The notes beneath the pieces are model-generated. The model had not been told where the DNA came from and did not search any database. It saw nothing but the letters and a program-made list of their open reading frames with translations. From Thermoanaerobaculia bacterium (GTDB lineage Bacteria > Acidobacteriota > Thermoanaerobaculia > Multivoradales > Multivoraceae), in contig JAJEHN010000015.1 of assembly GCA_022823665.1 (NCBI GenBank), forward strand, positions 4,195-68,194: a DNA stretch of 64,000 nt. Reading direction: 5' to 3'. The translations under genes were made by a program, and so were the position numbers. Below, one piece after another: positions 2,433 to 64,000 of this stretch; the stretch's first letter is position 1, and the number at the start of each line of letters is the position of its first letter.

Positions 2433-2458
2433 CCGTCAGGGCCGGGCCGCCGGGGCCA

Positions 2459-3460: not shown

Positions 3461-3493
3461 GGATCTCAGAAGGGTCCTTTCGCGGGCATCCTG

Positions 3494-5518: not shown

Positions 5519-5531
5519 GGCAGGACGGCGC

Positions 5532-38438: not shown

Positions 38439-38537
38439 GGGCCGACCGTACAACTCTGCGCGACCTTGGTCAAGCGGACTACCTCGACCCGGTACTGCGC
38501 CTCCACGACCGACCAAAGAAGGTGACGGATACAGCCA

Positions 38538-39893: not shown

Positions 39894-40699
39894 TCGTCGC
39901 GCCCCAGAAGGGTGCTCAGCACGCTACCTACCTCGGAGCGAAGCGTGTCGGCGTGACGGGCGAAGAAACCGCCCAGGTCGTAGCCGACGATCCTCGCCAT
40001 GAACTCATACGTCGACGTTAGAGGATCACCGCTCCTGAACTCCCCAGTCAGCACCACCCACCGGGCGGCCCTGTAGCGCAGGAGCACGTCTCGGTCGATC
40101 TGCTGGGACAGAACCAGAAGACAGGGGAGATACCCGCTAGTGTACGCCGCTACCGCGTTCGCCAGGTCGGCCTGCTGGCGTTTGCTGTCCTTGCTCTTGT
40201 ACCCCTGCCGCACCTCGAAGACGGCCCCCTTCAGGGAGCCGACGATCGAGGTGTCTACATCGACGGAGTCGGCAGCTTGGCGGATCCATCCCCGAAGCCG
40301 ATCTCTTGAGGGCTCATCGTGCACATCGTCGAGGGTCACTCGACCGTCCAGAGAGAGACGCCTCCGTTTTCCGTCCGACAGCGTGGTCTCGTAAGACCAG
40401 ATCACTTCCTCCGCGGACAGACCGAGTGCGTCCTGGAGTACCTCTCGGAACACGCGCTCGCAGGCGATACCGATCTGCCTGTAGATACTCGTCATTCCGC
40501 CGGCAGACCGATGGGCCGTGTAGAGCTTCGGATCGTCGAGCCCAAGCCATGTGTAGAACGGGTCCGCGCGGTAGAGATCGCGGAACTCCGCAAGAGTCAG
40601 CCCAGCCATCCTTCCCTGGCCGAACTTCGGCCGGTAATCGGCGCAGGACCGCACGCAATCTACGAAGATCCTGAGATAGTCATCGTCACGCGCTGTCAT
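39890..40699 (-). CDS. Hypothetical protein, first gene of the MTase operon (possible cognate restriction endonuclease)
   Basis: 269 aa with no family I can assign from sequence. Translationally coupled to the MTase. Type II REases are typically orphan in sequence; the assignment rests on position only. Confidence 0.4.
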   Translation of the reverse strand: MTARDDDYLRIFVDCVRSCADYRPKFGQGRMAGLTLAEFRDLYRADPFYTWLGLDDPKLYTAHRSAGGMTSIYRQIGIACERVFREVLQDALGLSAEEVIWSYETTLSDGKRRRLSLDGRVTLDDVHDEPSRDRLRGWIRQAADSVDVDTSIVGSLKGAVFEVRQGYKSKDSKRQQADLANAVAAYTSGYLPCLLVLSQQIDRDVLLRYRAARWVVLTGEFRSGDPLTSTYEFMARIVGYDLGGFFARHADTLRSEVGSVLSTLLGRDE

Positions 40700-41076: not shown

Positions 41077-42573
41077 TCACGGCCGGAAGGGTTCGGCCAT
41101 CCCCATCACGTCGCCGAGAACGGCCCAGAACTTGGTCTTCCTGGCGTCCTGTTTCCGGATCTCTGCGAAGTAGGCGTCGTGATCCTCAAAGCCCCGGTAG
41201 TCGTCGATCCTCTCCGCGAGCCCCGCGCAGGCCAGCAGCTGCCGGGCGGCGTGCCGATAGCGCGATGAGCGGGCGCTCCCCAGTGTGAAGTCGATCATTG
41301 CCCGCAGAACGAGCGTCGCGGCCAGCGGGTGGTCGGCCGCGAAGGCCGACGCGGCCGAGTTCAACGTGGCATAGAAGTCGCCGTTCAGTTCGCTCGCCCT
41401 CCGCACGGCGAGCGATGCGGCTCCGCCCACGTCCGGCCATCGCAGCACAAAACGAAGCGCGTCGTGCACGTCCGGATAACCGGCGGCGTGGTCGAGGGCT
41501 CTCTCGGTCGCGACGGCCGCGTCGGAGTCGCCCAGTCGCTCGAGGTACGCGCGCAAGGACGCCTCGTCGAGATGCTCCTCGAAGATCGCCCAACGCAACG
41601 CCTGAGCCTCCTCCGTTCGGCCGAGCGCGTCAAGCACGTCGATTCGCGTCTCCCGCCACTCCTCATCGGGCGACGGGAAACCATCTTCCCGCACGAGCCG
41701 AGCGGCGTCGAGTGTCTCGAGTGCCTCCCGCGGCCGGTTCGCGTCGAGCAGCCGCCGCCCGATCTCGGCGGCGATCACCGGAATCCTCCTCTGTTGCTCG
41801 TCGTACTGGGCCATGTAGGCATCCACGTCGCCCTGGGCGTCCGCGATGTCCTTCAACGCTTGAGGAATCGCACGCGCGAACACGACCAGGGCTTCATCCT
41901 CCGGGTCCGGCTCGGTTGGCCGACCCCAAGGGCCTCTGACGACGTTGGCCCCGTCCTCGTCAGGCGCGGCGACCACGCCACGGCCCCTGAAGGCGAGCAC
42001 TTTCCGGCGCAAGTGCTCCAGCCCCTCCGGTCCAAGAGCGGGCCCGACTGCGCCGATCAGGCCGTCGTACTGACCGAAGCCGTTCCTCCAGATGGCGTCA
42101 AAGGTCCGGTCGGCGAGCTTGACCCGGTCGGGACCAGCGGCGACGGCGACGCGACCGAGGTCGGCGCGGGCGGCGCGGAAGACCTTCCCGATCAGTCCGG
42201 AGCTGTCGGCGCAACGATCAAAGACCCGCTCGCCAAGCGCCATGAACCGCCACAGCAGATCGAGAGCGAGCCCCGGGTCACGCTCGGCGACGTGCCTCCG
42301 GATCGCCTGTCGCTGCGCCTCCAGGTCGTCCGCCAGAGCCGCGCTGCCGGACCGGGGAACGAACTTCTTCGCGCGACCCATAGCCGCGAGGCGCTTCCGG
42401 ATCTCGCCGGCGGCCGCCTTGGGACCCTTGGCGGCCGCAAGCTCCAGGCGCAATTGACGCTTGGCCGCCGCATCGCGCGCCGTGGCGGCCGAGAGAAGTT
42501 CCGCGAGCCTTCGGGCGCCCAGACCTTCCAAAGCCTCCACATCGATGGTGTTCCCGGCTGGCATGGGTCTCAC
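41077..42573 (-). CDS. Hypothetical alpha-helical protein
   Basis: 498 aa, Ala/Arg/Leu-rich with repeated helical-hairpin character. No catalytic motifs recognised. Confidence 0.55.
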   Translation of the reverse strand: MRPMPAGNTIDVEALEGLGARRLAELLSAATARDAAAKRQLRLELAAAKGPKAAAGEIRKRLAAMGRAKKFVPRSGSAALADDLEAQRQAIRRHVAERDPGLALDLLWRFMALGERVFDRCADSSGLIGKVFRAARADLGRVAVAAGPDRVKLADRTFDAIWRNGFGQYDGLIGAVGPALGPEGLEHLRRKVLAFRGRGVVAAPDEDGANVVRGPWGRPTEPDPEDEALVVFARAIPQALKDIADAQGDVDAYMAQYDEQQRRIPVIAAEIGRRLLDANRPREALETLDAARLVREDGFPSPDEEWRETRIDVLDALGRTEEAQALRWAIFEEHLDEASLRAYLERLGDSDAAVATERALDHAAGYPDVHDALRFVLRWPDVGGAASLAVRRASELNGDFYATLNSAASAFAADHPLAATLVLRAMIDFTLGSARSSRYRHAARQLLACAGLAERIDDYRGFEDHDAYFAEIRKQDARKTKFWAVLGDVMGMAEPFRP

Positions 42574-43396: not shown

Positions 43397-44590
43397 TCAA
43401 CCCGCCGGCGCCTGCAGATCCCCCAACATGCGACCAGCCGCGACGGCCCGGACGCGGTCCGCCATCGGGAAAGAGTGCTCGCTTGCGTGAACGACGGTCA
43501 ACCGGGAGAGTTCCAGGTCCCTGACCGCCGAGCGCATGGAGGGCGTCACGCGTGGCGATGACGTCCGCTTGATCTCGTAGCCGACACGGTGGTCGCCACG
43601 GTCGACGAGCAGGTCGAGCTCGGCGCCGGTGTGGGCCCGCCAGAAGTAGACGCGTTCCTCGGGCAGGTCGAGAAGGGTCAGCAACTGCTCGAGGATGAAG
43701 CCTTCCCACGAGGCGCCGCACTTCGGGTGGCGCTCGAGAGCGGTTTGGCTGTCCAACGCAAGGAGCGTGTGAAGCAGGCCGGAGTCCCGGATGTAGACCT
43801 TCGGCATCTTGACCTGGCGCTTGCGGAGGTTCGCATGCCACGGCTGCAGTTGACGCACGACGAGGGCTTCGGTGAGTTGATCCAGGTAGCGACGGACGGT
43901 CGTGTCAGAGACTCCGAAGGAACGCCCGAACTCGGAGCCGTTCCAGATCTGGCCGTGCCAGTGGGCCAGCATCGCCCAGAAACGGCGCATCGTGGGACCG
44001 GGAATCCGGCTTCCCAGAGCGGGAAGGTCGCGTTGAACGAATGTGTTGATGAACTCGCGCCGCCATCGTTCGCTGTCCTCGCCTGACGGAGCGAGGAATG
44101 AACGCGGAAAGCCGCCGCGGAACCAGAGGCCGTCCAGGGCCGCGACACCGGTCTCGGCAACGGACAGGCCCGGCAGGAAGTGGTAGGCGATCCGACCGGC
44201 CAGGGTCTCCGAACCCTGCCGCAGCAGATGCGGCGACGCGCTGCCGAGCACCAGGAACCGGGCCGGGAGTGGATCGCGGTCGCCGAGGACGCGAAGTACC
44301 GGGAAGAGCTCCGGGCGTAACTGGATCTCGTCGAGGATGACAAGCCCCTGAAGACCCGAGAGCGCCAGCCGGGGCTCGTCCAGACGGGCCAGGTCGTCGG
44401 GGTCCTCCAGATCAAAGCGATGGACCGGTGTGGCAGCGGACGTAGCGGCACGGGCCAGCTGCTTCGCGAGGGTGGTCTTGCCGACTTGGCGAGCGCCCAG
44501 GATGCCCACCACCGGAAACTGCCGGAGGAGGCTCTCGACAGCCGCGACTTGCTGCTGTCGCTGGATGAACTCGCTGGACACGAAGCGCAT
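43397..44590 (-). CDS. AAA+ ATPase with DUF4143 (archaeal-ATPase-like family)
   Basis: Walker A GARQVGKTTL. Walker B LVILDEIQ. The C-terminal DUF4143 region is conserved in this widespread, defence-island-associated family. Confidence 0.85.
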   Translation of the reverse strand: MRFVSSEFIQRQQQVAAVESLLRQFPVVGILGARQVGKTTLAKQLARAATSAATPVHRFDLEDPDDLARLDEPRLALSGLQGLVILDEIQLRPELFPVLRVLGDRDPLPARFLVLGSASPHLLRQGSETLAGRIAYHFLPGLSVAETGVAALDGLWFRGGFPRSFLAPSGEDSERWRREFINTFVQRDLPALGSRIPGPTMRRFWAMLAHWHGQIWNGSEFGRSFGVSDTTVRRYLDQLTEALVVRQLQPWHANLRKRQVKMPKVYIRDSGLLHTLLALDSQTALERHPKCGASWEGFILEQLLTLLDLPEERVYFWRAHTGAELDLLVDRGDHRVGYEIKRTSSPRVTPSMRSAVRDLELSRLTVVHASEHSFPMADRVRAVAAGRMLGDLQAPAG

Positions 44591-44711
44591 TCTACCCGGA
44601 ACTCTCGGCGGTTTCCATCGAGATTTCCTGCCTTAGCGCTGTTCCGCGAACCCGGAACGTCGTTGACCGGAACCCAGGCGGACCGAGCGACCGGCCGGGC
44701 CTCAGCCTGAG

Positions 44712-45143
44712 TCAGCCGAACCGGGGATCGAGCGGGAACGGGCGCAACTTGCCCGGCTTCACCTGATCGAAGTCCCGATGCAGCGGGTTGATGACGACGT
44801 TGCGCTCCAGCGGGTTGACGATGCTGGGAACGGCGATGGCGAGGTTGCGGCCCAGGGCGGTGGCGCCGAGGCGCTGGCTGTCGGAGGACGACGGTTCCGC
44901 TTCGAGGTGAGCGATCGCACCGTCCGGGACCATCACGTCGACGATGCGCCAGACTGGGTGGTCGACTCCGAACGGCAGGCCGACCAGGACTTCGAGCAGG
45001 GCCAGCGAAGAGGTCTCGCTGCAGTAGACGGCTCGCATCCCCGGCGGGCTCCATCTGCCGCCCCTGCGCGCCGCGCCGTCGCCGTTCAGGATCGTCGGAA
45101 CGTCCGGCGCCCACTGGGACCGGGCGAGCCGCCAGACCTTCAC
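44712..45143 (-). CDS. RES-domain toxin (NAD+-targeting, type II TA)
   Basis: RES fold: VWRLAR...GDGAARRGGRWSPPGMRAVYCSETSSLALLEVLV (R-E-S residues). Start placed at the GTG (VKVWRL). The track ORF is extended 34 codons upstream. Confidence 0.75.
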   Translation of the reverse strand: MKVWRLARSQWAPDVPTILNGDGAARRGGRWSPPGMRAVYCSETSSLALLEVLVGLPFGVDHPVWRIVDVMVPDGAIAHLEAEPSSSDSQRLGATALGRNLAIAVPSIVNPLERNVVINPLHRDFDQVKPGKLRPFPLDPRFG

Positions 45144-45150
45144 CCGGGAC

Positions 45151-45552
45151 TCACAGTGGAATGCCGTGGGCGAGGCGGTGAAGGACCGTGAGGACCTCCT
45201 CCGCGCCGACTTCCGTGTCCGAATGCTCCAGGGGCGTCTCGCCACTCAAGGCGGGATTGGCGTGCTTCAGCCACCGGACGGCGCTCTCGTGGTTGTAGTC
45301 GAAGAACTCGAGAGCCGCGTTGTAGACCCGGGCCAGCCGCGCCGCGCGGTCGCTCTCATGCCGGTTGAGCCGGCCCTGCCTGAGCCGCCGGAGCATGGTC
45401 TGGCGGGGTATGCCAACGACTGCCACGAGCTCCAGGTCGGAGATCGACAGCAGCCGCTTCAGGTCGGCGAGGATGTTCGCGGAAGCGCCGCCGCGGATCT
45501 GCTCGAGATCCGGAACGCTCAGTGGCTCTGCCCGTGTCGCCTCGGCCTTCAT
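45151..45552 (-). CDS. Xre-like / DUF2384 antitoxin partner of the RES toxin (ParS/MbcA-like)
   Basis: 133 aa, immediately upstream of the RES gene (7 nt away). The C-terminal region NAALEFFDYNHESAVRWLKHANPALSGETPLE matches the DUF2384 antitoxin domain. Confidence 0.75.
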   Translation of the reverse strand: MKAEATRAEPLSVPDLEQIRGGASANILADLKRLLSISDLELVAVVGIPRQTMLRRLRQGRLNRHESDRAARLARVYNAALEFFDYNHESAVRWLKHANPALSGETPLEHSDTEVGAEEVLTVLHRLAHGIPL

Positions 45553-45586
45553 CTGGTACAGACGACTGTACCATATGGTCTATCCC

Positions 45587-49521: not shown

Positions 49522-49590
49522 GGAACCTCCCTCTCGCGGTACGCCGAGTTCCGGCGACGCCTGCCGTAGCTTGCTGTCTACAATAGCGCG

Positions 49591-51165
49591 ATGAACTTCT
49601 CCCTCCGCCCCTTGCGCGCCACGGCCGGACCGGCCCTCGCTCTCATCTGCCTGGCCGCCCCGGCCGCGACGGCCCCGGCTCGCGCGGACGAAGGCGACGC
49701 GGCATCGACGGTCGCCGCAACGTCCGCTCCGCCCGGACGCTGGGAGAGCAGCCACTCGATCGACGGCGGCGGCGAGACGGTCGAGTACGACGCCGTCGTC
49801 ACTGGAATCCAGCTCGACAACGACGACGGCGCACCGGCCGCCCAGCTCTGGTACACGGCGTACTTCCGGACGAATGGCGCGGCCCCGGGCGAACGCCCCC
49901 TGGTGTTTTCCTACAACGGAGGCCCCGGCTCCGCGTCCTTCTGGCTGCACATGGGGATCATGGGGCCGCGGCGCGTCGTGACCCCCGACGTCGGCCCGCA
50001 GGGAGCGCCGCCCTACCCTCTCGAGGACAACGCCTGGACGATCCTCGACATCGCCGACATCGTGATGGTCGATCCGATCGGCACCGGCTTCAGCCATACC
50101 CTGGGCGAGACTCCGGGCTCCGACTACTGGGGCATCGACGAGGACGCCAAGTCGCTCACCCAGTTCATCCGGCGCTTCCTCAGCACGCACGACCGCTGGA
50201 ACTCGCCCCGCTACCTGCTCGGCGAGAGCTACGGCACGACCCGCTCGGCGGTGCTCGCCGGCCACCTGCAGCGGGCGAACATCGACCTGAACGGCATCGT
50301 CCTGGTGTCCTCGGTCCTGCAGTTCAACACGATCCAGTTCGCGCCCGGCGACGACCTCCCCTACATCGTGAACCTGCCGTCCTACACCGTGGCCGCCCGC
50401 TACCTGGACGCGCTGCCGGAGAAGACCCCGGCGGATCTCGAGACACTGATGGCCGAGGTCGAGGAATGGGCGCTCACCGAGTACGCCACCGCGTTGCTTC
50501 GCGGCGGCACCCTCGACGCGGACACCCGCGCCCGGGTGATCGACCGCCTGCACCGCTACACCGGACTCTCGCGCGACTTCCTCGACAAGTCGGACCTGCG
50601 GGTGACCGCTCCGGCCTTCGAGGCCGAACTGCTGCGCGACGAAGGCAAGATCGTCGGCCGGCTGGACGCGCGCTTCACCGGCCCGGCCGGGGACGCTTTG
50701 GGAGGCCGGCCTTCCCACGATCCGCAATCCACGGCAATCAGCTCGGCCTACACGTCGGCCTTCAACAGCTACCTGCGCGGCGAGCTCGGCTACGGCGGCG
50801 ACCGCGAGTACGTTCCGAGCGGCGCCGTCCGCGACTGGAACTGGGGGCGGGTGAACGCGGGCCGCTTCTCGCGCGGCGACGGCACGCCGAACGTCGCCCC
50901 CGACCTGGCCGCCGCCATGCGCCGGAACCCGGCGCTCGAAGTGCTCCTGATCAACGGCCTGTACGACCTGGCGACGCCCTACTTCGCAGCCGTCTGGACG
51001 ATGGACCACATGGGCCTGCCGCCGGAACTGCGGGCCAACATCCAGCGCGAGGACTTCGCCGCCGGGCACATGATGTACGTGGAACAGTCCCTGCTGCCGC
51101 AGTGGAAAGAGACGCTCGACGCCTTCATCCTGCGGACCTCGGGCGCCGGGCGGGACGCCGACTGA
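49591..51165 (+). CDS. S10-family serine carboxypeptidase, secreted
   Basis: Signal peptide. GESYG catalytic Ser motif (YLLGESYGTTRSA). The conserved WxNGGPG-like N-terminal region (SYNGGPGSASFW). Confidence 0.75.
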   Translation: MNFSLRPLRATAGPALALICLAAPAATAPARADEGDAASTVAATSAPPGRWESSHSIDGGGETVEYDAVVTGIQLDNDDGAPAAQLWYTAYFRTNGAAPGERPLVFSYNGGPGSASFWLHMGIMGPRRVVTPDVGPQGAPPYPLEDNAWTILDIADIVMVDPIGTGFSHTLGETPGSDYWGIDEDAKSLTQFIRRFLSTHDRWNSPRYLLGESYGTTRSAVLAGHLQRANIDLNGIVLVSSVLQFNTIQFAPGDDLPYIVNLPSYTVAARYLDALPEKTPADLETLMAEVEEWALTEYATALLRGGTLDADTRARVIDRLHRYTGLSRDFLDKSDLRVTAPAFEAELLRDEGKIVGRLDARFTGPAGDALGGRPSHDPQSTAISSAYTSAFNSYLRGELGYGGDREYVPSGAVRDWNWGRVNAGRFSRGDGTPNVAPDLAAAMRRNPALEVLLINGLYDLATPYFAAVWTMDHMGLPPELRANIQREDFAAGHMMYVEQSLLPQWKETLDAFILRTSGAGRDAD

Positions 51166-54474: not shown

Positions 54475-57400
54475 TCACGGCCTGCATGCGCCGGGGAAGG
54501 CGGCGGTGTCGCTGATCGCCGGCGCGACCCTGCCGAGTGTGTTGCGGTAGGTCCTGGGCGGGTCGACGCCCAGGGTGTCGGTGACGGTCATCTCGTACTC
54601 GACGTCGGTGGTCGAAGCGGCGAAGACCCAGCGGTGCTCGTTGATGTGGCAGCCGTCAAGCACCTTGACCAGAATCTCCCAGTTGTCGGCATTGAAGAAC
54701 CAGAACATGCCGGAGTCGTCCGTACGATCCTGGAGGACCACGCCCCAGCCGGTCTCGTCTCTCCGGGTCCGCCAGGTCACTTCGACGGCGTAGCGTTCCT
54801 CCTGTAGACAGAGGGTGTAGCGGTCGGGTTCGCACGTTCCCTTCGGCTGGTCCGGCCGGACGAGGAAGCCGGCGTGGGCCTGGTCGGTTTCGCCCCCGCC
54901 GGCGACGGTGAGGGTGACGCGGTAGAAGCCGGGTTCGACCCAGGCGTGGGTGACGATCTCCGCGGTGTAGGCGCCGCCGTCGCCGGTATCCCAGGCGAGC
55001 GTCTCGACAGGGCCGGTGCTCGTGTCCTCGAAGGTCACCGGATTGCCGGTGAAGGTAGTGCAGAGTTCCTCCGTGCACTCGGCGTCGTGGATGTTGAAGC
55101 TTGCCTTCAGTGGCTGGGAAGGCGGTGGCGGCGGCTCTGGAGGATCGGGCACTTCCAGCACCGTCACCGAGACGGTCCTCAGCGCAAACACAAGGCCGTC
55201 GCTGGCGACGACCAGGAAGAGGTGCGAGTCCTTCACCGACGCGTCCAGGTTGGCGTCGTCGGCCACCGACAACTGGGCCGTGAACTCTCCGATCGTGAAC
55301 GGAGCGGAATCGGCGCCCGCGAGGCCGTAGTCGAGCAGGTCGCCGTCCGGATCGAACGCCGTGACCGGCGAGCCGAACTCGCCTGTCGTGTCCTCGAAGA
55401 TCGTGAGCTCAAGAGGCGTCGCCGGATCGAAGAACGGCGGCATGTTCTGCGGAGGCGGCGGAGGCGGCGGATCCGGCGGTGGCGGCGGCGGCGGAGGCGG
55501 CGCCTCGTCGTTGTCCGTGATGAGCAGCCGGTGGACTCGCGGCGTCCCCGGGGCGTAGCCCTGGCCGTCCACCAGGGTGAACACGATGTTCTCGTTGCCT
55601 TCGACCGCCTGGTCGTCGACGATCGTCACCGTGATGTCGACGCTTGCGGCACCGGCCGCGACCGTGACCGTTCCGGAGTTGCCGGTGGCGCCGCTGACCG
55701 TGTAGTCCACGCCGGGCGCGGCCGCGCCCGACAGGGTGTAGCTCAGCGTGATGGGGCTGGCGGCCGCGGGCTGGAGATTCACGGTCACGTTGCGGCTGCC
55801 GTCGCCCTCGCCGACGCTCGCCCCGGCTAGAGCGAAGGAGGCTGTCGGCTCGTCGGGGTCGGGGTCGTCGTCGGTGATGTTCACGGTGACGTTGCCGCTG
55901 ACGGCGCCGTAGCCGCCGCCGGACGCGGCATGAGCGAGAGTGATGGCGTCTTCGTTGGCCGAGTCCGTGTCCTGCTGGGCGGTAAGGGCGACGGTCTGCG
56001 CGTCGTTCCAGGTGGACGTGGTGAAGCTGATCGTCGTCTGGGCGCCGTCCCTGCCGCTGTCCGTGTCCACGATGAGATCCGTTCCGGCGTGGCCCGAAAC
56101 CGTGACGGTGACGGTGTCCGTGGGACTCGTGCCGAGCCGGACCGTGTAGTTGGCGCTGCCGCCCTCCGTGACACCGACGGTTGTCCGCGAGAAGACGAGG
56201 CGCTTCGTCTCGTCGTCCGTGATCGTGATCTGGCCGTTGCCGGAGCGGCTGGCCGTCGCGCCGCCGTCGAGGTTCGTGAACGTCAGCGTGCCGGTGGAGA
56301 CCGTCACCGTGCGGTCCTCCGCGTCGTCGTCGTCGCTCGCGGTCAGGGTGACGTCGGCTGCCGTCGCGCTCGCGCCGGTGAAGGTCACCGTGCTGCCGGC
56401 GAAGGTGACGCCGGCGGGCGTGCCCGACAGCGCCAGGGTGAAGTCCGTGCCCCTCGCGCCGCCCGAGAACGCGAGCGGCACGGCGAGACTCTCGCCGGAT
56501 ACGAGCGCGCGGCCCAGCGTCAGCCGGATCGTGGCCGTGGCGGAGGAACTGCCCTCCGTCGCCGCGGCGTCCGGCACGGAAAGCGTCACCGGCGTCGGCG
56601 TGTTGTCCGTGATCGTGATGTCGACGTGGGGCGTCCCGCCCCGGGCGTAGCCGCTCGGCAGCGTGCCAAGCTCGAGCCGCAGCGTCTCGTCCGGCTCGTC
56701 GGCCGAATCGTTGGTTGCGGTCAGGGTGATCGTTCCAGCGGTGGCGCCGTCGGCCACCGTGATCGTCCCCGCCGGCGTGCCGCCCAGCGAGTAGTCCGCG
56801 GCTACCGCCGTCGAGTTCGCGGCCACCCGCTGCACCGGAATCGCCAGACTCCTGCCCGACGGCGCCTCGCTGACCGTCGCCGTGATCGTCAGCGTGCCGG
56901 ACTCCGTCACCGCACCGCTGTTGTTCACCGAGAGATCGACCTTCGGATCGTCGTCGTCCGTGATGTTCACCGTCACGTTGCCGCTCACCGAGCCGTAGCC
57001 GCCGCCCGAAGCCGCGTGAGCCAGCGTAATCGCCGTCTCGTTCGCCGTGTCGTTGTCCTCCTTCGCCGTGACCGTGACCGTCTGCGCGTCGTTCCAGGTG
57101 GACGTCGTGAAGCTCAGCGTGTTCTGGTCGTTCGCCGTGACGCTGTCCGTGTCCACCGTGAGGTCCGTGCCCAAGTGGCCCGAGACCGTCACCGTCACGG
57201 TGTTCGTCGGCTTCGTCCCGAGCTTCACCGTGTACGTGGCGCTGCCGCCCTCCGTGACGCCGACGGTGGCGGCCGAGAAGACCAGGCGCTTCGTGTCGTC
57301 GTCCGTGATCGTGATCTCGCCGGCGCCCGTCCGGCTGCCGGTGGCGCCGCCGTCGAGGTTCGTCGCCGTCAGGATCGGCGCGGCGCCCGTCGAACTCGGG

Positions 57401-60400
57401 GGGATGGACACGGTGACGGTCCGGTCGTCCGCGTCGTCGTCGGACGACGCCGTCAGCGTGACGTTCGCCGCCGTGGCCGTCGCGCCGGTTTGCGGACCGG
57501 TGAAGGTCACCGTGCCGGTCGCCGCGTTGAAGGTGACGCCCGCGGGCGACCCGGACAGCCCGAGCGTGAAGTCCGTGCCCGCCGTGCCGCCCGTGAACGA
57601 AAGCGGCACGGCCAATGCCTCGCCGGAGACCAGGCCGCGGCCGAGGGTCAGCCGGATGGTCGCCGTGGCCGACGAACTGTCTTCCGTCGCCGTCGTGTCC
57701 GGCACGGAGAGCGCCACCGTCGTCGGGTCGTCGTCCGTGATCACGATGTCCACTCGGTGCGATGTGCCGTGGTCGTAGCCCGACACCGTGCCGAGCTCCA
57801 GGCGCAGCGTCTCGTCCGGCTCGTCCGCCTGGTCGTTCGTCGCCGTGAACGTGGACGTGCCGGAGGTCTGTCCGCTCGAGATCGTGATCGCCGGAAGCGT
57901 GTAGTCGCTCGCGTCGGCCGACGAGTTCTCCGCCACCCGCTGGACCGGCACGGCCAAGTTCCCGGAGGGCGCACGGCTCACCGACGCCGTCACCGTCAGC
58001 GTGCCGCCCTCCGTCACAGCGCCGTTGCCCGAAACGGAAAGCTCGACGGTCGGGTTGTCGCTGTCGATGATGTTCACCGTCACGCTGCCGGAAACGCCGT
58101 TGTAGCCGCCGCCTGAGGCCGCGTGGACCAGGGTGATCGGCGCCTCGTTGTCCGAATCGTTGTCCGTCGAGGCGCTGACCGTGACCGTCTGCGCGCTGTT
58201 CCAGTTGGTGTCCGTGAAGGTCAGCGTCGACTGGTCGTTCGGCGTCGTGCTGTCCGTGTCCACGGACAGGTCCGTGCCGCCGTGGCCGCTGACCGTGACG
58301 GTGACGTCACTAGTCGGTTCCGACGTCAGCTTCACGGTGTAGGTCGCGCTGTTGCCCTCCGTAACGTTCACGGTGGAGCTGGAGAAGGTCAGGGCCTTCG
58401 TGTCGTCGTCCGAGATCGTGATCTGGCCGGCGCCCGTCCGGCTGCCGGTGGCGCCGCCGTCGAGGTTCGTCGCCGTCAGGATCGGCGCGACGCCCGTCGA
58501 ACTTGCCGGGATGGACACGGTCACCGTCCGATCCTCCGCGTCGTCATCGGGCGACGCCGTGAGCAGGATGCTCGCCACGGTGGCCGTCGCGCCCGTCCGC
58601 GGACCGGTGAAGGTCACCGTGCCGCCCGCGAGAGCGACGCCCGTGGGCGTTCCGGAAAGCGCCAGCGTGAAGTCCGTGTCCAGTGTGCCGCCGTTGAATC
58701 CGAGCGGCACGGCCAGGACCTCGCCGCTCTCCAGGCCGCGGCCGAGGGTCAATTGGATCCTGGCAGTGGCGGCTGTGTCTTCTTCCGTGGCCGTCGTGTC
58801 CGGCGTGGACAGGGTCACTGTGGTCGCGTCGTCGTCCGTGATGACGATGTCCACCTGCGACGAGGAACCGTGGTCGTAGCCCGTCACCGTGCCGAGTTCC
58901 AGCCGCAGCGTCTCGTCCGGCTCGTCGTCCGTGTCCTGTGTCGCCGTCAGGGTGATCGTGCCCGTCCTCGCGCCGTCGGCCACCGTGATCGTCCCCGCCG
59001 GCGTGCCGGACAGCGAGTAGTCGCCCGTTCCGGCCGTGGTGTCCGCCGAGACGACCTGCACCGGGACCGCGAGATCCGCGCCGGACGGCGCCCGCGTCAC
59101 GGTCGCCGTGAGCGTCAGTGTGCCGCCCTCCGTCACGGCGCCGCCGTCCGACACGGACAGGGTGACCGTCGGAGTATCGCTGTCCGTGATGTTCACCGTC
59201 ACGTCGCCGGAAACCGAGCCGTAGCCGCCGCCCGACGCCGTGTGCGCCAACGTGATCGGCGCCTCGTTGTCCGCGTCGTTGTCCGTCGAGGCGCTGACCG
59301 TGACGGTCTGGGCGTCGTTCCAGTTGGACGTCGTGAAGGTCAGCGTCGACTGGTCGTTCTGCGTCGTGCTGTCCGTGTCCACCGAGAGGTCCGTGCCGTT
59401 GTGGCCGGAGACGGTGACGGTCACGGCGGCAGTGGGCCGGGTGGCGAGCTTCACCGTGTAGGTCGCGCTGCTTCCCTCCGTCACGTTCACCGTGGAGGTC
59501 GAGAACGTCAGGCCCTTCGACTCGTCGTCCGTGATCGTGATCCGGCCGTTCCCCGTGCGGCTGCCGCTGGCGCCGCCGTCGAGGTTGGTTGCCGTCAGTA
59601 TCGGTGCATTGCCTGACGAACTCGACGGAATGGACACGGTGACCGTGCGGTCTTCCGCGTCGTCGTCGGAGGCCGGCGTCAACGTGACGTCCGCCGCGGT
59701 CGCGCTCGGTCCGGTGAAGGTCAACGTGCCGCCCGCGAGAGCGACGCCCGAGGGCGTGCCGGAGAGCGCCAGCGTGAAGTCCGTGCCCACCGTGCCGCCG
59801 CTGAACTGCAAGGGCACGGCGAGCGCCTCGTTCGCGATCAGCGCGCGGCCGAGCGTCAACCGGATGGTCGCCGTCGCGGCCGCCGTGTCTTCGCTGGCCG
59901 TCGCGTCCGGCACGGACAACGTCACCGGCGTCGCCGTGTTGTCCGTGATCGTGATGTCCACATGGGAGGGCGTGCCCGGGTCGTAGCCGTCGGGCAGCGC
60001 GCCGAGGCCGATGCGGAGCGTCTCGTCCCGCTCGTCGTCCGAATCCGTTCTCGCGGTCAGGGTGGCCGTGCCCATGGTCGCTCCGTCGGCGATCGTGATC
60101 GTGCCGGCGAGCGTGAAGTCGGCCGCCACGGCCTGCGAACTCCCCGCTACCCGCTGCACCGGAATGCCGAGGCTCGTCCCGGACGGCGCCGTGTCCACCG
60201 TCGCCGTCACGGTCAGCGTGCTCCCCTCCGTCACCGTGCTCCCCGACACCGACAGGCTGACCTTCGGGTTCGCCGCCATGTCGTCGTCCTCGATCGTGCC
60301 GGTCGCCGCGGCGCCCGTGACGAACACCCCGGTGGCGCCCTCCGGCAGCGCCAGAGTGACCGTGAAGTCCTCGTCGCCCTCGATCGCCGTGTCGTGCGTG

Positions 60401-63400
60401 GTGTCGACGGAGATCGTCGCCGTGCCGGTCGTCGTCGAGGTGTTCGTGTTGCCGCCGATCGTCACGCTCCCCGGCGTGCCGTCCGCCGTGCCCGTGTAGT
60501 CGACGCCGCTCTCCGCCGTGCCGTCCGCCGTCTCGTAGCTCAGCGTCAGGTCCGCCGCCCCGGAAGAGCCCAACACGGGGAACGTGTCGTGCGTCACGGT
60601 GAACTCCACGGCCGAACCCTCCGTCGCCGAGGCGTCCTCGACGCTGGCGCAGGAGGCCACCGCGAGCGTTGACGGGTTGGCCGTGCGTTTCGTCTCCAGC
60701 GCCGACGGCAGGGTCCCCGTCAGGCCGTTGCCGCAGAGCGAGAGCTGCGTCAACGCGGTCAGGCCGCCGAGTTGCGACGGAATCGCGTTCGCCAGGTCGT
60801 TGCCGGCCAGGTGCAGTTCCTGGAGGCTGGTCGGCAGGGTGGTCGGAACGGAACCGGTCAGGCCGTTGCTCCGCAGATGCAGATGCGTCAGCGACGTCCG
60901 GGTGCTGAGATCGGGAATCCCGCCCGACAGCTCGTTCCGGCCGAGGACGAGACGTTGGATGCCGGCCGGAAGCTCCGCCGCCGCCGGCACGTTCCCGGTC
61001 AGGGCGTTTCCGCTCAGGTAGAGCCAGTCGAGGGACGCGATCGAACTGAGGTCGGGGATCGCGCCGTCGAGATCGTTGTCGCTGAGCACGAGCCGCAGAA
61101 CGTTCGGCGGGAGCTCCGCCGCGGCCGGCAGCGAACCGGTCAGCCCGTTGCCGAACAGGTAGACGTAGATCAGCGACGCCAGGCTGCTCAGGTCGGGGAT
61201 CGAGCCCGTGAGCCCGTTGTTGTGGAGGAGAAGGACCCTCAGGCCGGCCGGCAGCGACGAAGCCGCCGGAAGCGACCCGGTCAGCGCGTTCCCGTCCAGG
61301 CGGATGTCCGTCAACTCGGTCAGCGTGCTCAGATCCGGGAAGGACGTCCCGTCCAGCGCGTTGTCGCGGATCCAGAGCTGCTTGAGTCCCGTCGGCAGCC
61401 TGTCGGCGCCCGGAACGCCGCCGCTGAACCCGTTCTCGTTCAGGTGCAGGTGGTCGAGGGCCGTGACACCGCGCAGGTCGGGGATCGACCCGCTCAGGTC
61501 GTTGCCGATCAGCCGGAGGAACTGCACGCTGGCGGGAAGCGCGGGAATGCCCCCGGTCAGCTCGTTGTCCGTCAGGTCCACCTGGAACAGCCTCGTCAGG
61601 CCGCTCAGGTCGGGGATGCCGCCTGACAGTCGATTGGTCGGGAGATTGAGAAAGCGGAGCCCCGTCGGCAGGGCGGGAACGCGGCCTGTCAGGTCGTTGC
61701 TCGACAGGGTGAGTTCCTCGAGATTCGAGAGGCCGCTCAGGTCGGGAATGGAACCGGCGAGCGCGTTCCCCTTGAGATCGAGATTCACCAGGCTGGCGGG
61801 CAGAGCCGGGACGCCGCCGGTCAGGCCGTGGCCCGTGATCCGGAGGAACTTCAGCGCGCTCAGGCCGGTGAAGCTCGTCGGCATTGCGCCGTCGAAACCA
61901 TGCGGAACCGACGGGAGCACGAGCGAGGTGACCCGGCCGTCCGGGAAGTCGATGCCGTCCCAGTCCGCCATGCTGACGCCGGACGACCAGTTCAGCGCCT
62001 GAGCCGGCGAATCGCCCTCCAGCGTGTCCTTGATATCCAGCAGGAAGGCGCAGTCGGCCGCCAGCAGGGCGGCCGTCGCGGCGTCGGGCGCGTTCGTCGC
62101 CGTCACGGCCACGGAAGCAGCCGTGCACGACGCGGGTATCTCGTCGTCTTCGATCGTGATCTGCCCGCTGCCGCTGCCGGTCGCGCCGCCGCCGAGGCCG
62201 GTGGCGGTCAGCGTGCCGGTGGAGACGGTCGTCACCAGGTCGATCGCGTCGACGTCGTCCTCGGGGGTCAGGGTCAGGTCGGCGACCGTCGCGCTCGCGC
62301 CCGTCCGCGGGCCGGTGAAGGTCACCGTGGGAGAGGAGAACGTGACGCCCGTCGGAGTGCCCGACAGCGCCAGGGTGAAGTCCGTCCCCGGCGTGCCGGC
62401 CGAGAACGCAAGCGGCACGGCGAGCACCTCGCCGTCGACGAGGCCGCGGCCAAGCGTCAGCCGAATGCCCGCCGTCGTAGGCGACGTGCCTTCCTCCGCC
62501 GTAGCATCCGTGACGGAGAGCGTGACTGTCGTCGGCGTGTTGTCCGTGATCGTGATGGCCACCTGGGTCGTCGCGCCGGGGTCGTGGCCCGTCACCGTGC
62601 CGAGCTCGAGGCCCAGCGTCTCGTCCTGCTCGTCCAGCGTGTCCGTCACGGCCGTGAGCGTCGTCGTGCCGGTCGTGCTGCCGGAGGCGATCGTGATGGA
62701 CGTTGGCGACAGCGAGTAGTCCGCGGCCACGGCCGTGGAGCTCCCCGCCACCCGCTGGATCGGCACGGTGAGATTCGCGGACGGCGCGGCACTCACCGTA
62801 GCGGTCAACGTCAGCGTACCGCCCTCCGCGACCGCGCCCACGCCCGACACGGACAGCTCGACCGTCGGATTCACCGTGCCGGTGAACGTGGCGGACCAGA
62901 GGCCGGCGCCTTTCGAGTTGACCGCGCGAACCTGCACATCGTACTGGACTCCGACCGCCAAACCGGTCAAGGTGTGACTCAGAGTGCCGGCGTTCTCGTT
63001 GCCCGTCGTGACCGTCCAGTGCTGATCGCCCTTGTCGCTCGCGTCACTACGGATGCGCCGCAAGTCATAGCTCGTGACCGCGTCGGCGCCAATGTTGGAC
63101 GGAGCGTCCCAGGACACCGTCAACGACCCCTGGGAACCCGCCACTGCCGTGATCGCCGGCGCACCGGGAGTCGCGCGATGTCCATGGAAGACAAGCCCCC
63201 AGGACGTCAAGCTGCCGACCCTGCCGCCGGAGACTTCGTCGGTGAGTCGCAGCGTCCAGGTTCCGGCGGGGTTCTCCCCCAGATGCGCGGCGGAACCGAA
63301 ACGGAAGGCGCCCGTCAGAGGGTAGCGGTCGCCATCCGGGTCCGTGTAGGGCGGGCTCAGCGTCGAAACCGTCCCGGCCGGTGAGACAAGTTCCAGGCGG

Positions 63401-64000
63401 ATATCCCGAAAACTCGGCGCCTGGAAAACCGTGTTCACTTCAACGAACTCGACGAACTCAACCTCCCCGCCCACCGTCACCGCGCTCGTTACCCGCGAGC
63501 TGTCGTCCGGGATCGATACGGCGGTCGTGTTCGATACCTGCGCGGTTTGAACGAACTGCGGCAGCTTGGTCCACCCCGAGACGAGGTCCACCGCCGCCTT
63601 GGCGTCCAGGACGCCAAACCCGTACTTGTGGTTGAAGTCGTAGCGTTCGCTTGTCGAGCCGTACTTGAGCGCGCCGGTGTTCCAGCCGCCGTCCGAGGCA
63701 TGGTTCTTCCGAGCCGAGGCCGCCAGAATCAGCTTCACGTCCCGCCAGGTCAACGTGGAGTCGACGCCCCGCACCAGCGCCGCGACTCCCGCGACCTGTG
63801 GAGTCGCGGTGGAAGTGCCGTTGAAGTCGTCTCTGTAGCGACCGTAGTTCTCGGTGGTCAGGATACCGCCTCGCCGGCCGAGATACCCATAGCCGCATAC
63901 CCATAGGTTGGCCCCCTCCTCCGAGATCTCCGCCTTCTCGCTCTCGGCATCCAGCACACAGGCCGCGGTGACGCCGTAGTAGTTCGCGTACTCCTCCAGG
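54475..64000 (-). CDS. Giant secreted/surface multidomain protein, N-terminus truncated by the window edge: subtilisin/kexin S8 + P-domain + FN3 + LRR + tandem Calx-beta + cadherin-like + PKD + unknown C-terminal domain
   Basis: >3160 aa. Residues 1-130 are the tail of an S8 peptidase (catalytic Ser box GTSTATPQVAG). Then a proprotein-convertase P-domain (...TWTLRLTDEVSGG...GLVFHGH) and an FN3. About 16 plant-type LRRs follow (LTGSIPDLSGL..L..L.L..N.LTG). At least 14 Calx-beta-like domains come next (VTEGGTLTLTATVS...DETL.LELG...ITITD). Then a poly-Pro linker (PPPPPPPPPDPPPPPPP), a cadherin-like segment, a PKD domain (WDTGDGG...YRVTLTV), and a roughly 160-aa C-terminal domain with 4 Cys. The frame stays open to position 64000. 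Confidence 0.85.
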   Translation of the reverse strand, partial: LEEYANYYGVTAACVLDAESEKAEISEEGANLWVCGYGYLGRRGGILTTENYGRYRDDFNGTSTATPQVAGVAALVRGVDSTLTWRDVKLILAASARKNHASDGGWNTGALKYGSTSERYDFNHKYGFGVLDAKAAVDLVSGWTKLPQFVQTAQVSNTTAVSIPDDSSRVTSAVTVGGEVEFVEFVEVNTVFQAPSFRDIRLELVSPAGTVSTLSPPYTDPDGDRYPLTGAFRFGSAAHLGENPAGTWTLRLTDEVSGGRVGSLTSWGLVFHGHRATPGAPAITAVAGSQGSLTVSWDAPSNIGADAVTSYDLRRIRSDASDKGDQHWTVTTGNENAGTLSHTLTGLAVGVQYDVQVRAVNSKGAGLWSATFTGTVNPTVELSVSGVGAVAEGGTLTLTATVSAAPSANLTVPIQRVAGSSTAVAADYSLSPTSITIASGSTTGTTTLTAVTDTLDEQDETLGLELGTVTGHDPGATTQVAITITDNTPTTVTLSVTDATAEEGTSPTTAGIRLTLGRGLVDGEVLAVPLAFSAGTPGTDFTLALSGTPTGVTFSSPTVTFTGPRTGASATVADLTLTPEDDVDAIDLVTTVSTGTLTATGLGGGATGSGSGQITIEDDEIPASCTAASVAVTATNAPDAATAALLAADCAFLLDIKDTLEGDSPAQALNWSSGVSMADWDGIDFPDGRVTSLVLPSVPHGFDGAMPTSFTGLSALKFLRITGHGLTGGVPALPASLVNLDLKGNALAGSIPDLSGLSNLEELTLSSNDLTGRVPALPTGLRFLNLPTNRLSGGIPDLSGLTRLFQVDLTDNELTGGIPALPASVQFLRLIGNDLSGSIPDLRGVTALDHLHLNENGFSGGVPGADRLPTGLKQLWIRDNALDGTSFPDLSTLTELTDIRLDGNALTGSLPAASSLPAGLRVLLLHNNGLTGSIPDLSSLASLIYVYLFGNGLTGSLPAAAELPPNVLRLVLSDNDLDGAIPDLSSIASLDWLYLSGNALTGNVPAAAELPAGIQRLVLGRNELSGGIPDLSTRTSLTHLHLRSNGLTGSVPTTLPTSLQELHLAGNDLANAIPSQLGGLTALTQLSLCGNGLTGTLPSALETKRTANPSTLAVASCASVEDASATEGSAVEFTVTHDTFPVLGSSGAADLTLSYETADGTAESGVDYTGTADGTPGSVTIGGNTNTSTTTGTATISVDTTHDTAIEGDEDFTVTLALPEGATGVFVTGAAATGTIEDDDMAANPKVSLSVSGSTVTEGSTLTVTATVDTAPSGTSLGIPVQRVAGSSQAVAADFTLAGTITIADGATMGTATLTARTDSDDERDETLRIGLGALPDGYDPGTPSHVDITITDNTATPVTLSVPDATASEDTAAATATIRLTLGRALIANEALAVPLQFSGGTVGTDFTLALSGTPSGVALAGGTLTFTGPSATAADVTLTPASDDDAEDRTVTVSIPSSSSGNAPILTATNLDGGASGSRTGNGRITITDDESKGLTFSTSTVNVTEGSSATYTVKLATRPTAAVTVTVSGHNGTDLSVDTDSTTQNDQSTLTFTTSNWNDAQTVTVSASTDNDADNEAPITLAHTASGGGYGSVSGDVTVNITDSDTPTVTLSVSDGGAVTEGGTLTLTATVTRAPSGADLAVPVQVVSADTTAGTGDYSLSGTPAGTITVADGARTGTITLTATQDTDDEPDETLRLELGTVTGYDHGSSSQVDIVITDDDATTVTLSTPDTTATEEDTAATARIQLTLGRGLESGEVLAVPLGFNGGTLDTDFTLALSGTPTGVALAGGTVTFTGPRTGATATVASILLTASPDDDAEDRTVTVSIPASSTGVAPILTATNLDGGATGSRTGAGQITISDDDTKALTFSSSTVNVTEGNSATYTVKLTSEPTSDVTVTVSGHGGTDLSVDTDSTTPNDQSTLTFTDTNWNSAQTVTVSASTDNDSDNEAPITLVHAASGGGYNGVSGSVTVNIIDSDNPTVELSVSGNGAVTEGGTLTVTASVSRAPSGNLAVPVQRVAENSSADASDYTLPAITISSGQTSGTSTFTATNDQADEPDETLRLELGTVSGYDHGTSHRVDIVITDDDPTTVALSVPDTTATEDSSSATATIRLTLGRGLVSGEALAVPLSFTGGTAGTDFTLGLSGSPAGVTFNAATGTVTFTGPQTGATATAANVTLTASSDDDADDRTVTVSIPPSSTGAAPILTATNLDGGATGSRTGAGEITITDDDTKRLVFSAATVGVTEGGSATYTVKLGTKPTNTVTVTVSGHLGTDLTVDTDSVTANDQNTLSFTTSTWNDAQTVTVTAKEDNDTANETAITLAHAASGGGYGSVSGNVTVNITDDDDPKVDLSVNNSGAVTESGTLTITATVSEAPSGRSLAIPVQRVAANSTAVAADYSLGGTPAGTITVADGATAGTITLTATNDSADEPDETLRLELGTLPSGYARGGTPHVDITITDNTPTPVTLSVPDAAATEGSSSATATIRLTLGRALVSGESLAVPLAFSGGARGTDFTLALSGTPAGVTFAGSTVTFTGASATAADVTLTASDDDDAEDRTVTVSTGTLTFTNLDGGATASRSGNGQITITDDETKRLVFSRTTVGVTEGGSANYTVRLGTSPTDTVTVTVSGHAGTDLIVDTDSGRDGAQTTISFTTSTWNDAQTVALTAQQDTDSANEDAITLAHAASGGGYGAVSGNVTVNITDDDPDPDEPTASFALAGASVGEGDGSRNVTVNLQPAAASPITLSYTLSGAAAPGVDYTVSGATGNSGTVTVAAGAASVDITVTIVDDQAVEGNENIVFTLVDGQGYAPGTPRVHRLLITDNDEAPPPPPPPPPDPPPPPPPQNMPPFFDPATPLELTIFEDTTGEFGSPVTAFDPDGDLLDYGLAGADSAPFTIGEFTAQLSVADDANLDASVKDSHLFLVVASDGLVFALRTVSVTVLEVPDPPEPPPPPSQPLKASFNIHDAECTEELCTTFTGNPVTFEDTSTGPVETLAWDTGDGGAYTAEIVTHAWVEPGFYRVTLTVAGGGETDQAHAGFLVRPDQPKGTCEPDRYTLCLQEERYAVEVTWRTRRDETGWGVVLQDRTDDSGMFWFFNADNWEILVKVLDGCHINEHRWVFAASTTDVEYEMTVTDTLGVDPPRTYRNTLGRVAPAISDTAAFPGACRP
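55900..60500. repeat. Tandem ~1.1-kb DNA repeats (about 4 copies), each encoding a triplet of Calx-beta domains inside the giant gene
   Basis: Plus-strand artefactual ORFs restart with near-identical peptides at 55940, 57047, 58133 and 59240 (spacing 1107/1086/1107 bp). The minus-strand protein shows near-identical blocks ...TVTLSVPD.TATE...TATIRLTLGR...TDFTLALSGTP.GV.... Confidence 0.8.

Follow-up and report, generated by a model that had tools for sequence, protein, structure and literature searches.

One giant gene occupies the end of the window (the whole 64,000-nucleotide stretch of DNA analysed), and we read its product, with a confidence a little above even, as a Ca2+-dependent protease-adhesin of ~3,900 aa that is exported and strongly acidic. 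Most of the protein's parts are already known; their mosaic is unusual but does not amount to a system of a new kind. In the mechanism that we propose, Sec would export the protein, Ca2+ would stiffen a Calx-beta-type array into a long spacer, and the length of this spacer would evolve through the gain and loss of whole super-repeats (four here, two in a relative). The leucine-rich repeat (LRR), cadherin, PKD and C-terminal (CTD) modules would keep the enzyme attached to a surface made of protein or glycan, which may be a particle, the matrix of another organism or the cell's own envelope, and the held protease would cut at that surface, probably after basic residues.

The gene is a single open frame of 3174 sense codons plus a terminal stop at window positions 54475-64000 on the - strand (translation of 54475-63999), and the ORF listing places it at 54475..63957 on the same strand. 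No stop occurs before the window edge, so the gene extends past base 64000; judging by the length of its ortholog, the whole gene would measure ~11.7 kb and its product ~3,900 aa. The earlier note had described one giant ORF (>3160 aa, >9.5 kb) running off the window, which is what we find, and the architecture that it gave, namely a kexin-like S8 domain with a P-domain, plant-type LRRs, a Calx-beta-type array, a hinge, cadherin and PKD domains and a Cys domain, is essentially right. The GC3 of 0.91, with GC1 > GC2, matches the coding signature of a 70% GC genome. At the 3' end of the gene, no relevant Rfam family, tRNA, promoter-like or terminator-like site was found. The part of the protein inside the window has a pI of 4.06 and holds 380 D+E vs 128 K+R. 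From the N-terminal side, its features are as follows:

63550..63999, - strand: C-terminal third of the S8 catalytic domain (Peptidase_S8 E 4e-10), with the catalytic Ser in GTSTATP and a Glu equivalent to furin D306
63187..63450, - strand: proprotein-convertase P-domain, aa 184-271 (P_proprotein PF01483 E 1.9e-12; spanned by the furin alignment)
62881..63153, - strand: fibronectin type III (FN3) domain, aa 283-373 (fn3 E 1.4e-9), overlooked earlier
62140..62874, - strand: partial super-repeat SR0, units A and B only, aa 376-620 (self-BLAST, alignment)
61855..62139, - strand: N-terminal cap region of the LRRs, aa 621-715 (Cys pair 625/650; the BRI1 alignment starts here)
60682..61854, - strand: 17 LRRs of 21-24 aa, LxxLxLxxNxLxGxIP, aa 716-1106 (motif count; Pfam LRR_4, LRR_1, LRR_8)
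60280..60672, - strand: first canonical Calx-beta domain, aa 1110-1240 (Pfam E 7.7e-10, 39.3 bits)
55864..60270, - strand: super-repeats SR1-SR4, aa 1244-2712, ~365 aa each, units A-B-C (self-BLAST, alignment)
55507..55863, - strand: second canonical Calx-beta domain, aa 2713-2831 (Pfam E 2.4e-9, 37.7 bits), missing from ortholog L001
55450..55503, - strand: poly-proline hinge PPPPPPPPPDPPPPPPP (translation)
55144..55449, - strand: cadherin-like repeat, aa 2851-2952 (phmmer vs PDB: protocadherin-15 EC repeats, E 3.3e-10)
54853..55113, - strand: PKD domain, aa 2963-3049, with a short Pro-rich linker ahead of it (PKD_4 E 6.5e-12)
54478..54852, - strand: CTD, 125 aa, aa 3050-3174, with four invariant Cys and the motif FWFF..NWE.LVKVLDGC..N...WVF
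54475..54477, - strand: stop codon, convergent with a DUF1552 gene ending at 54454

The missing 727 aa are provided by ortholog L001, from a Candidatus Multivorans MAG (Acidobacteriota; about 89-95% identical; independent long-contig assembly), and comprise a signal-like segment, an FN3 domain, roughly three domains of PPC-like type and the first part of S8, which carries Asp, His and Asn. Inside the window the Ser is the sole active-site residue, while Asp, His and the oxyanion Asn lie past the edge. In the ortholog, D, H, N and S align with furin D153, H194, N295 and S368 in subtilase order, and residue mapping shows that both S1-pocket acids are kept (furin D258 as D, D306 as E), that furin D191 and E236 are conserved, and that the S2/S4 residues D154 and D264 are swapped for N and Q, which makes a strict dibasic specificity doubtful. 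Over the catalytic and P domains the closest solved relatives are furin (E 6.5e-46) and kexin (9.7e-45), vs 2e-19 for the best subtilisin, and the furin alignment covers chain residues 7-466 with the P-domain directly after the catalytic domain. By sequence, the catalytic domain is thus of the furin/kexin type, S8B-like, with an adjoining P-domain, and the S8 and P-domain pairing named earlier is borne out by the two Pfam matches. The description of this P-domain as 'eukaryote-like' is not supported: S8+P+FN3 modules abound in prokaryotic assemblies, with 428 matches at E<=1e-5 among the 8000 candidates scored, and such modules also occur at the Dehalococcoidia loci L002 and L003 and in a paralog in the relative's genome. 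Within the ortholog's 760 N-terminal residues, Pfam gave sub-threshold fn3 and PPC matches followed by S8 and no match to an I9-type or S8 prodomain, although a divergent prodomain may be present.

The spacer is built from 16 beta-sandwich domains, two of which pass the Pfam Calx-beta threshold and 14 of which are divergent (5 A, 5 B, 4 C). The super-repeats were found by chunked self-BLAST and are absent from the TRF output because their period exceeds 500; each A-B-C super-repeat consists of three beta-sandwich domains with acidic ITITDDD-type linkers at the ends. Unit A scores 24.5 (SR0) and 14.9 bits against Pfam Calx-beta, below the cut-off of 27, and units B and C have no Pfam Calx-beta match and no significant family by sequence. 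Comparison by hhalign nevertheless relates A to B (E 2e-5), to C (9e-6) and to the canonical Calx domains (4e-5) at probabilities of 70-83%, AF2 predicts A-B-C as three sandwiches in tandem (pLDDT 82), and Foldseek matches this model to NCX1/CALX CBD12 and to integrin legs at E 1e-9 to 1e-11. D-x-D-x-x-D/E-x-E motifs are seen in every A, B and C unit. The 14 divergent domains are Calx-beta-like by profile comparison, predicted fold and acidic motif, and Ca2+ binding is predicted. The earlier count of 'at least 14 Calx-beta' domains resolves into the two canonical copies and the 14 divergent ones, which fall below the Pfam threshold and are Calx-beta-like by these three lines of comparison. The poly-proline hinge, on which TRF reports a GCG/GCGGAGGCG array at 55449-55502, the cadherin-like repeat (no Pfam match at E<=1) and the PKD domain were all recovered as previously proposed.

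An extracytoplasmic location of the giant protein is well supported on sequence grounds, and export via Sec can be inferred from the N-terminal hydrophobic segment of the ortholog together with the Cys residues, of which the window part has 12, all in six sequential pairs. The window protein contains no transmembrane segment; its C-terminus (...AAFPGACRP) lacks a PEP-CTERM, MYXO-CTERM or LPXTG-type motif with hydrophobic helix and basic tail, and no hydrophobic segment is found there (maximum Kyte-Doolittle value over 19 aa of 0.66 in the last 150 aa). No Pfam or NCBIfam match to a T9SS Por_Secre_tail or type-B CTD was obtained on the last 125 aa at E<=1, and no membrane or wall anchor or outer-membrane secretion signal was found in the giant protein. 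The label 'surface protein' is supported as far as the extracytoplasmic location goes, no anchor having been found.

The CTD itself, in our reading stapled by disulfides, had been noted as an unassigned Cys-containing domain, and so it remains: no family model in Pfam or NCBIfam matches these 125 aa, even with E<=1 as the limit, and Foldseek searches of its model, predicted to be all-beta with an AF2 pLDDT of 90.6, returned nothing below E 0.1 in the PDB or BFVD. A profile search nevertheless recovers 10,032 representative proteins (50% identity clusters) at E<=1e-3, so that a family of >10,000 clusters has no curated Pfam or NCBIfam model. Its partners elsewhere are domains of secreted enzymes and adhesins, including PKD (20/58), fn3 (12/58), metallopeptidases and beta-propellers. 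Assignment to the PA0111/PP0108 redox-disulfide family was considered and rejected, the weak NCBIfam match of two members (E 1e-3) reaching 18 bits against a cut-off of 230.

The CTD also carries one of the two best-surviving alternatives, in which it serves an uncharacterised system for sorting or attachment and fixes the C-terminus to the envelope, so that the stalk projects the LRR block and the protease head outward from the cell surface, as in lactococcal PrtP and streptococcal C5a peptidase. The domain lies <=10 aa from the C-terminus in 133/150 of the best family members, is joined to many unrelated secreted enzymes and typically follows a PKD domain, as in many sorted cargo proteins, and the paralog in L004 likewise ends in PKD+CTD. 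However, it matches none of Por_Secre_tail, PEP-CTERM, LPXTG or similar sorting domains, no hydrophobic segment accompanies it, and in other proteins it occurs in 2-4 tandem copies, at the N-terminus, or internally with PPC and LRR downstream, which is not how sorting signals behave. Nor was conserved neighbouring machinery seen in two gene contexts, those of two short CTD proteins, which have no partner genes in common. We consider this alternative unlikely, and the earlier suggestion of a sorting or anchoring domain is not upheld; because it is often tandem and sometimes internal, the CTD is more likely a binding module, as the protease-adhesin reading would have it. More speculatively, and with little confidence on our part, the CTD may be a module, new and widespread, for extracellular targeting or attachment (a tag that many diderm lineages use for surface retention or secretion) or a new lectin-like fold, and together with the multi-protease giants it could mark an undescribed class of tethered extracellular degradative machines in uncultured Acidobacteriota and their neighbours.

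Because >80% of the length consists of binding or spacer domains, the protein could instead be primarily an adhesin or matrix protein whose kexin-like domain is inactive or merely self-processes the polyprotein into LRR and Calx modules. Its dibasic sites are few and some sit at module borders (ETKR after the LRRs, DDxTKR at the B/C border within SR3 and within SR4), and repeat-number variation is typical of adhesins. Yet these sites vary among the super-repeats, SR1 and SR2 having SKG and TKA at that position, the catalytic and S1 residues are conserved, and relatives carry two or three S8+P modules per protein, which self-processing alone explains poorly. A primarily adhesive role is thus unlikely in our view, and we retain the protease-adhesin reading.

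In the LRR block, the 17 repeats counted by motif agree with the ~16 plant-type LRRs of the earlier note, the top PDB matches are all plant LRR receptor kinases (MIK2, GSO1, FLS2 and BRI1, with E down to 1e-77), and the block is closed by the Cys pair 1089/1117. In phmmer, the region aligns with BRI1 from query residue 14 onward, opposite chain residue 16, and the cap region has no Pfam match to LRRNT_2 (PF08263) at E<=1. These nearest solved structures, together with the match of the cadherin-like repeat to animal protocadherin-15, would suit a eukaryote-like effector of a host-associated symbiont, in which plant-type LRR, cadherin and FN3 domains mimic host proteins. However, among the matches listed those nearest to the LRRs are metagenome proteins of prokaryotes (35-45% identity vs ~30% for plant proteins), GC content is uniform along the giant gene, free MAG contigs of Dehalococcoidia and Acidobacteriota commonly carry the same set of domains, and the window holds no sign of host association. 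The effector reading is therefore improbable, and the earlier treatment of the LRRs as a symbiont or eukaryote-like marker is not supported: neither the relatives nor the GC content point to a recent eukaryotic origin or a host-associated lifestyle. On the same two grounds, we rejected the idea that the LRR block passed recently from a plant to a bacterium. Searches of the literature on Candidatus Multivorans returned no habitat or biology, and those of the sponge-symbiont literature nothing specific.

Comparison with relatives also bears on the integrity of the gene. Downstream synteny is conserved between the giant gene and its ortholog, which keeps SR1 and SR3 of the four super-repeats, with indels in register. 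The upstream gene in the relative encodes a zincin protease-FN3-2xCTD-PPC-LRR protein drawn from the same domain stock, and a 4,843-aa paralog in the relative's genome has three protease modules. All matches listed in the protein homology searches are < ~820 aa, so full-length giant relatives are probably under-sampled or fragmented, as in L005, a 57%-identical homolog split into three gene calls in another long-read assembly. An assembly artefact or pseudogene, in which several repeat-bearing genes were fused or collapsed, might be suspected from the length and repetitiveness of the gene, the broken homolog and a copy number unlike that of the relative, yet it is scarcely credible, since the super-repeats are just 71-77% identical in DNA with a longest shared exact run of 64 nt, the frame is unbroken across 9.5 kb, and the ortholog is also one intact frame with the same domain order, whole-unit in-register losses being the only differences. 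The gene thus appears to be a single real one, as against the collapsed-repeat mis-assembly that had been named as its possible refutation.

Uncultured Acidobacteriota are abundant, and polymer attack and surface attachment among them are poorly known. A 3,900-aa protein that unites a furin-type protease with plant-type LRRs and a length-variable Ca2+-type stalk offers a concrete, testable candidate for surface-tethered proteolysis, a case that the three-protease paralog makes equally. The more general pay-off is the CTD, which is confidently folded, has thousands of members on proteases, propellers and PKD/FN3 arrays, and merits curation and structure determination.

Among known systems, the LRR block shares with plant PS-type ectodomains (BRI1, FLS2, MIK2) and their bacterial look-alikes the NxLxGxIP consensus and Cys-flanked N- and C-terminal cap regions, whereas its repeats are alternately 21 and 24 aa long, not uniformly 24, and it sits in a giant protein that, unlike plant receptor kinases, has no kinase, transmembrane segment or LRRNT_2 match. 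Furin and kexin (MEROPS S8B) and the Aeromonas sobria serine protease ASP (PDB 3HJR), the top solved relatives, likewise place the P-domain immediately after S8. The giant protein differs from them in having FN3 and PPC-like domains (in the ortholog) in place of a recognisable I9-type prodomain, ~2,900 aa of LRR, Calx-beta, cadherin and PKD modules after the protease, relatives with 2-3 protease modules per protein, and no D154 or D264. The giant repeat adhesins LapA, SiiE and MpIBP depend on Ca2+ and leave the cell by type I secretion; the likeness lies in tandem beta-sandwich repeats, units A and C giving sub-threshold Pfam LapA matches, and the shared traits include large size, acidity, linkers of Ca2+ type rich in Asp, a varying number of repeats and ligand-binding modules towards one end. 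Unlike these adhesins, the giant protein has a protease domain, no T1SS C-terminal signal, no RTX nonapeptides (GGxGxD, 0 in the window protein and in the ortholog) and, in the ortholog, an N-terminus with a Sec-type hydrophobic segment. PrtP, ScpA and deseasin MCP-01, the last of which is among the solved-structure matches of the giant protein's catalytic region, represent the cell-envelope and multidomain extracellular subtilases; they are S8A enzymes with a PA insert or, in Gram-positives, an LPXTG anchor, and the giant protein departs from them in being S8B-like with a P-domain and an LRR solenoid, without a known anchor, and about three times longer. Lactocepin PrtP, ScpA and MCP-01 likewise combine a subtilase head with FN3/PKD/PPC-type beta-sandwich domains and a long spacer, and the logic common to all of them is a protease kept at a surface or an insoluble substrate.

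The best-supported reading of the giant gene, as judged from its sequence, is an exported, Ca2+-dependent protease-adhesin, in which a long, length-variable Calx-beta spacer and putative binding modules (LRR, cadherin, PKD and the four-cysteine C-terminal domain, CTD) would place an endoprotease of the furin type on a surface, either of the cell or of a substrate. Neither of the two convergent neighbours hints at a functional link with the gene:

54475..63957 (-): giant-gene ORF in the ORF listing of the window
about 51.2-53.05 kb (+): DUF1592-family gene, convergent with the giant gene
53.06-54.45 kb (+): DUF1552 gene, convergent with the giant gene

Translation of window 54475-63999 gives 3174 sense codons and one terminal stop (residue numbers count from this visible translation). 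Since this frame runs off the window edge without a stop, the gene extends past base 64000, as the earlier note had proposed. Its codon-position GC (GC1 0.61, GC2 0.56, GC3 0.91) follows the pattern of the other window genes (window GC roughly 70%), and the visible protein has a pI of 4.06, with three times as many acidic as basic residues.

With the initial 380 residues of the visible part as query, a scan across GTDB species genomes located an ortholog (locus L001); its 1.8 Mb contig belongs to a MAG that bears the label Candidatus Multivorans sp. (Acidobacteriota, Thermoanaerobaculia). In a comparison of about 13.6 kb that took in the downstream genes, the stretches that could be aligned are 91-95% identical in DNA; the window thus comes from a close relative of the L001 genome and not from that genome itself. 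The ortholog is a single intact frame of 3056 aa, with 727 N-terminal residues additional to the window part, in this order:

first: hydrophobic signal-like segment
second: FN3-like domain, just under the Pfam threshold
third: about three PPC-like domains, under the Pfam threshold
fourth: N-terminal two thirds of the S8 domain

A Pfam scan of this N-terminus detected no prodomain family. By analogy, the full-length protein of the window strain would be about 3,900 aa. Directly upstream in the relative, just beyond the window's end and on the same strand, L001:7-3531 (+) encodes a 1,174-aa zincin metalloprotease-FN3-2xCTD-PPC-LRR protein, with the same domains and a different protease.

Chunked self-BLAST and an alignment of the repeats (A3) resolved the stalk into four super-repeats (SR1-SR4) of about 365 aa at aa 1244-2712, each composed of units A, B and C, with an additional A-B copy at aa 376-620. 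Pfam calls Calx-beta only in the two flanking domains:

aa 1110-1240: canonical Calx-beta 1, Pfam match
aa 2713-2831: canonical Calx-beta 2, Pfam match

Unit A falls just under threshold and units B and C are without Pfam assignment; hhalign relates A to B, C and the canonical domains (E about 1e-5). The AlphaFold A-B-C model (pLDDT 82) consists of three beta-sandwiches in tandem, with Foldseek matches that include NCX1/CALX CBD12 and integrin leg domains, and all units bear an acidic Dx(D)xxD/ExE motif and close with an ITITDDD-type linker. A fair count from motifs and models would be 16 Calx-beta-type domains; the "at least 14" claimed earlier holds for that broad type, whereas only two are Pfam-canonical.

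Beyond the stalk lie a 17-residue poly-Pro hinge, read directly in the translation, a cadherin-like repeat (E 3e-10 to protocadherin-15 EC repeats), a second Pro-rich linker, PKD and the CTD; the hinge, cadherin-like, PKD and Cys-containing C-terminal domains are all present as first described. The CTD (125 aa, four invariant Cys, motif FWFF..NWE.LVKVLDGC..N...WVF) is matched by no family in Pfam or NCBIfam, even with the cut-off relaxed to E<=1. An eight-sequence profile searched in a 1.84-billion-protein library found 10,032 representative proteins at E<=1e-3 (8,812 at E<=1e-10). Among the 150 best matches, the domain is the extreme C-terminus in 133 and N-terminal in 13, and each of the 150 has its copies in tandem, two or four of them, which reflects a bias of the ranking since scores add up. 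In the gene upstream of the ortholog it is internal, two copies preceding PPC and LRR. Its partner domains are PKD, FN3, zincin metallopeptidases, lactonase-type propellers, He_PIG and M23. The AlphaFold model is all-beta and of high confidence (pLDDT 90.6, pTM 0.87); Foldseek returned nothing significant in PDB or BFVD, and the profile matched no PDB sequence.

The rivals to the protease-adhesin are a "protease on a stalk" with a C-terminal anchor, an adhesin whose protease would be self-processing, a host-mimicking effector and, least likely, an artefact. For the CTD, a T9SS, PEP-CTERM, LPXTG or RTX signal was rejected, as Pfam/NCBIfam scans and sequence features revealed none. Positional freedom and tandem use make it more probable that the CTD is a binding module stabilised by disulfides than a sorting tag.

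The closest solved structures to the S8+P region of the ortholog are furin (E 6.5e-46) and yeast kexin, followed by the kexin-like Aeromonas sobria protease, with classical subtilisins at only about 1e-19. Furin D153/H194/N295/S368 align with D/H/N/S, the S1 residues D258 and D306 with D and E (the latter being residue 2 of the window translation), and D191 and E236 are retained; D154 and D264 become N and Q. This closeness and these matches justify the label "kexin-like" and make a preference for basic P1 plausible, while a strictly dibasic specificity is doubtful. The P-domain had been called eukaryote-like, but it is not peculiar to eukaryotes here: of 8000 candidates scored with S8+P+FN3 modules, 428 matched at E<=1e-5. 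A 4,843-aa paralog on the L001 contig at 942-961 kb (L004:3182-17713, +) holds three complete S8+P modules in one polypeptide and ends in PKD and CTD; a 3,220-aa Dehalococcoidia protein (L003:8900-18562) has two, without a CTD.

The LRR block comprises 17 LxxLxLxxNxLxGxIP repeats (not the 16 or so first counted) spaced 21-24 aa apart, with the Cys pairs 625/650 and 1089/1117 on either side. As the name of a sequence class, "plant-type" is right: the best PDB matches are all plant LRR receptor-kinase ectodomains (E down to 1e-77). The nearest relatives in a large protein database are prokaryotic metagenome proteins (35-45% identity, plants about 30%), often fused with FN3, Calx-beta, PKD, cadherin or S8+P. 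With such relatives and GC flat along the gene, there is no sign of a recent eukaryotic origin.

The earlier note had named collapse of shorter repeat-containing genes as its refutation; at only 71-77% DNA identity, and with no exact run in common longer than 64 nt, the super-repeats have diverged well beyond what a collapse would allow. In the independently assembled L001, one frame shows the identical domain order; SR1 and SR3 are kept (90-91% aa identity), SR2 is missing, and so is SR4 together with the second Calx-beta. The window has all of SR1-SR4 (55864-60270) plus that second Calx-beta. These clean in-register unit indels speak for a genuine gene, with a stalk that changes in length by unequal recombination, and the copy-number difference between close relatives points to rapid length evolution. 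A 57% identical protease-region homolog (L005:7738-14253, +; ENA ERZ25069191, 2.8 Mb contig) is broken into three gene calls that overlap and follow one another on the same strand (760 + 568 + 858 aa), probably because of erroneous frameshifts in a long-read assembly at 16x. Such genes are thus easily fragmented, which may explain short database relatives.

Elsewhere in the window, a secreted-looking S10 serine carboxypeptidase gene (49570-51165, +) lies three genes from the giant protease, with DUF1592 and DUF1552 between. GC falls to 0.62-0.66 at 37476-40699 (-), a probable horizontally acquired restriction-modification island of three co-oriented ORFs. The middle one encodes a DNA methyltransferase of 451 aa that carries an SPPY motif; the two around it (346 and 269 aa) are without a Pfam match. 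A RES-domain toxin and Xre/MbcA/ParS-type antitoxin form a toxin-antitoxin pair at 44712-45579 (-), near a DUF6880 protein (41077-42573, E 1e-151) and an AAA_14/DUF4143 ATPase (43397-44632). Translations judged by eye suggest likely hopanoid genes at 1431-5545 (-):

3494-5545 (-): squalene-hopene-cyclase-like ORF
2459-3493 (-): radical-SAM HpnH-like ORF
1431-2435 (-): NAD-dependent epimerase-like ORF

Two by-products are the most interesting: the CTD family, which lacks curation, and the paralogs with several protease modules. Giant extracellular mosaics are frequent in MAGs, and all parts but one of the protein belong to known domain families. What is new is this particular fusion of an S8B-like protease, plant-type LRR and poly-Calx-beta stalk; the kind itself is known.
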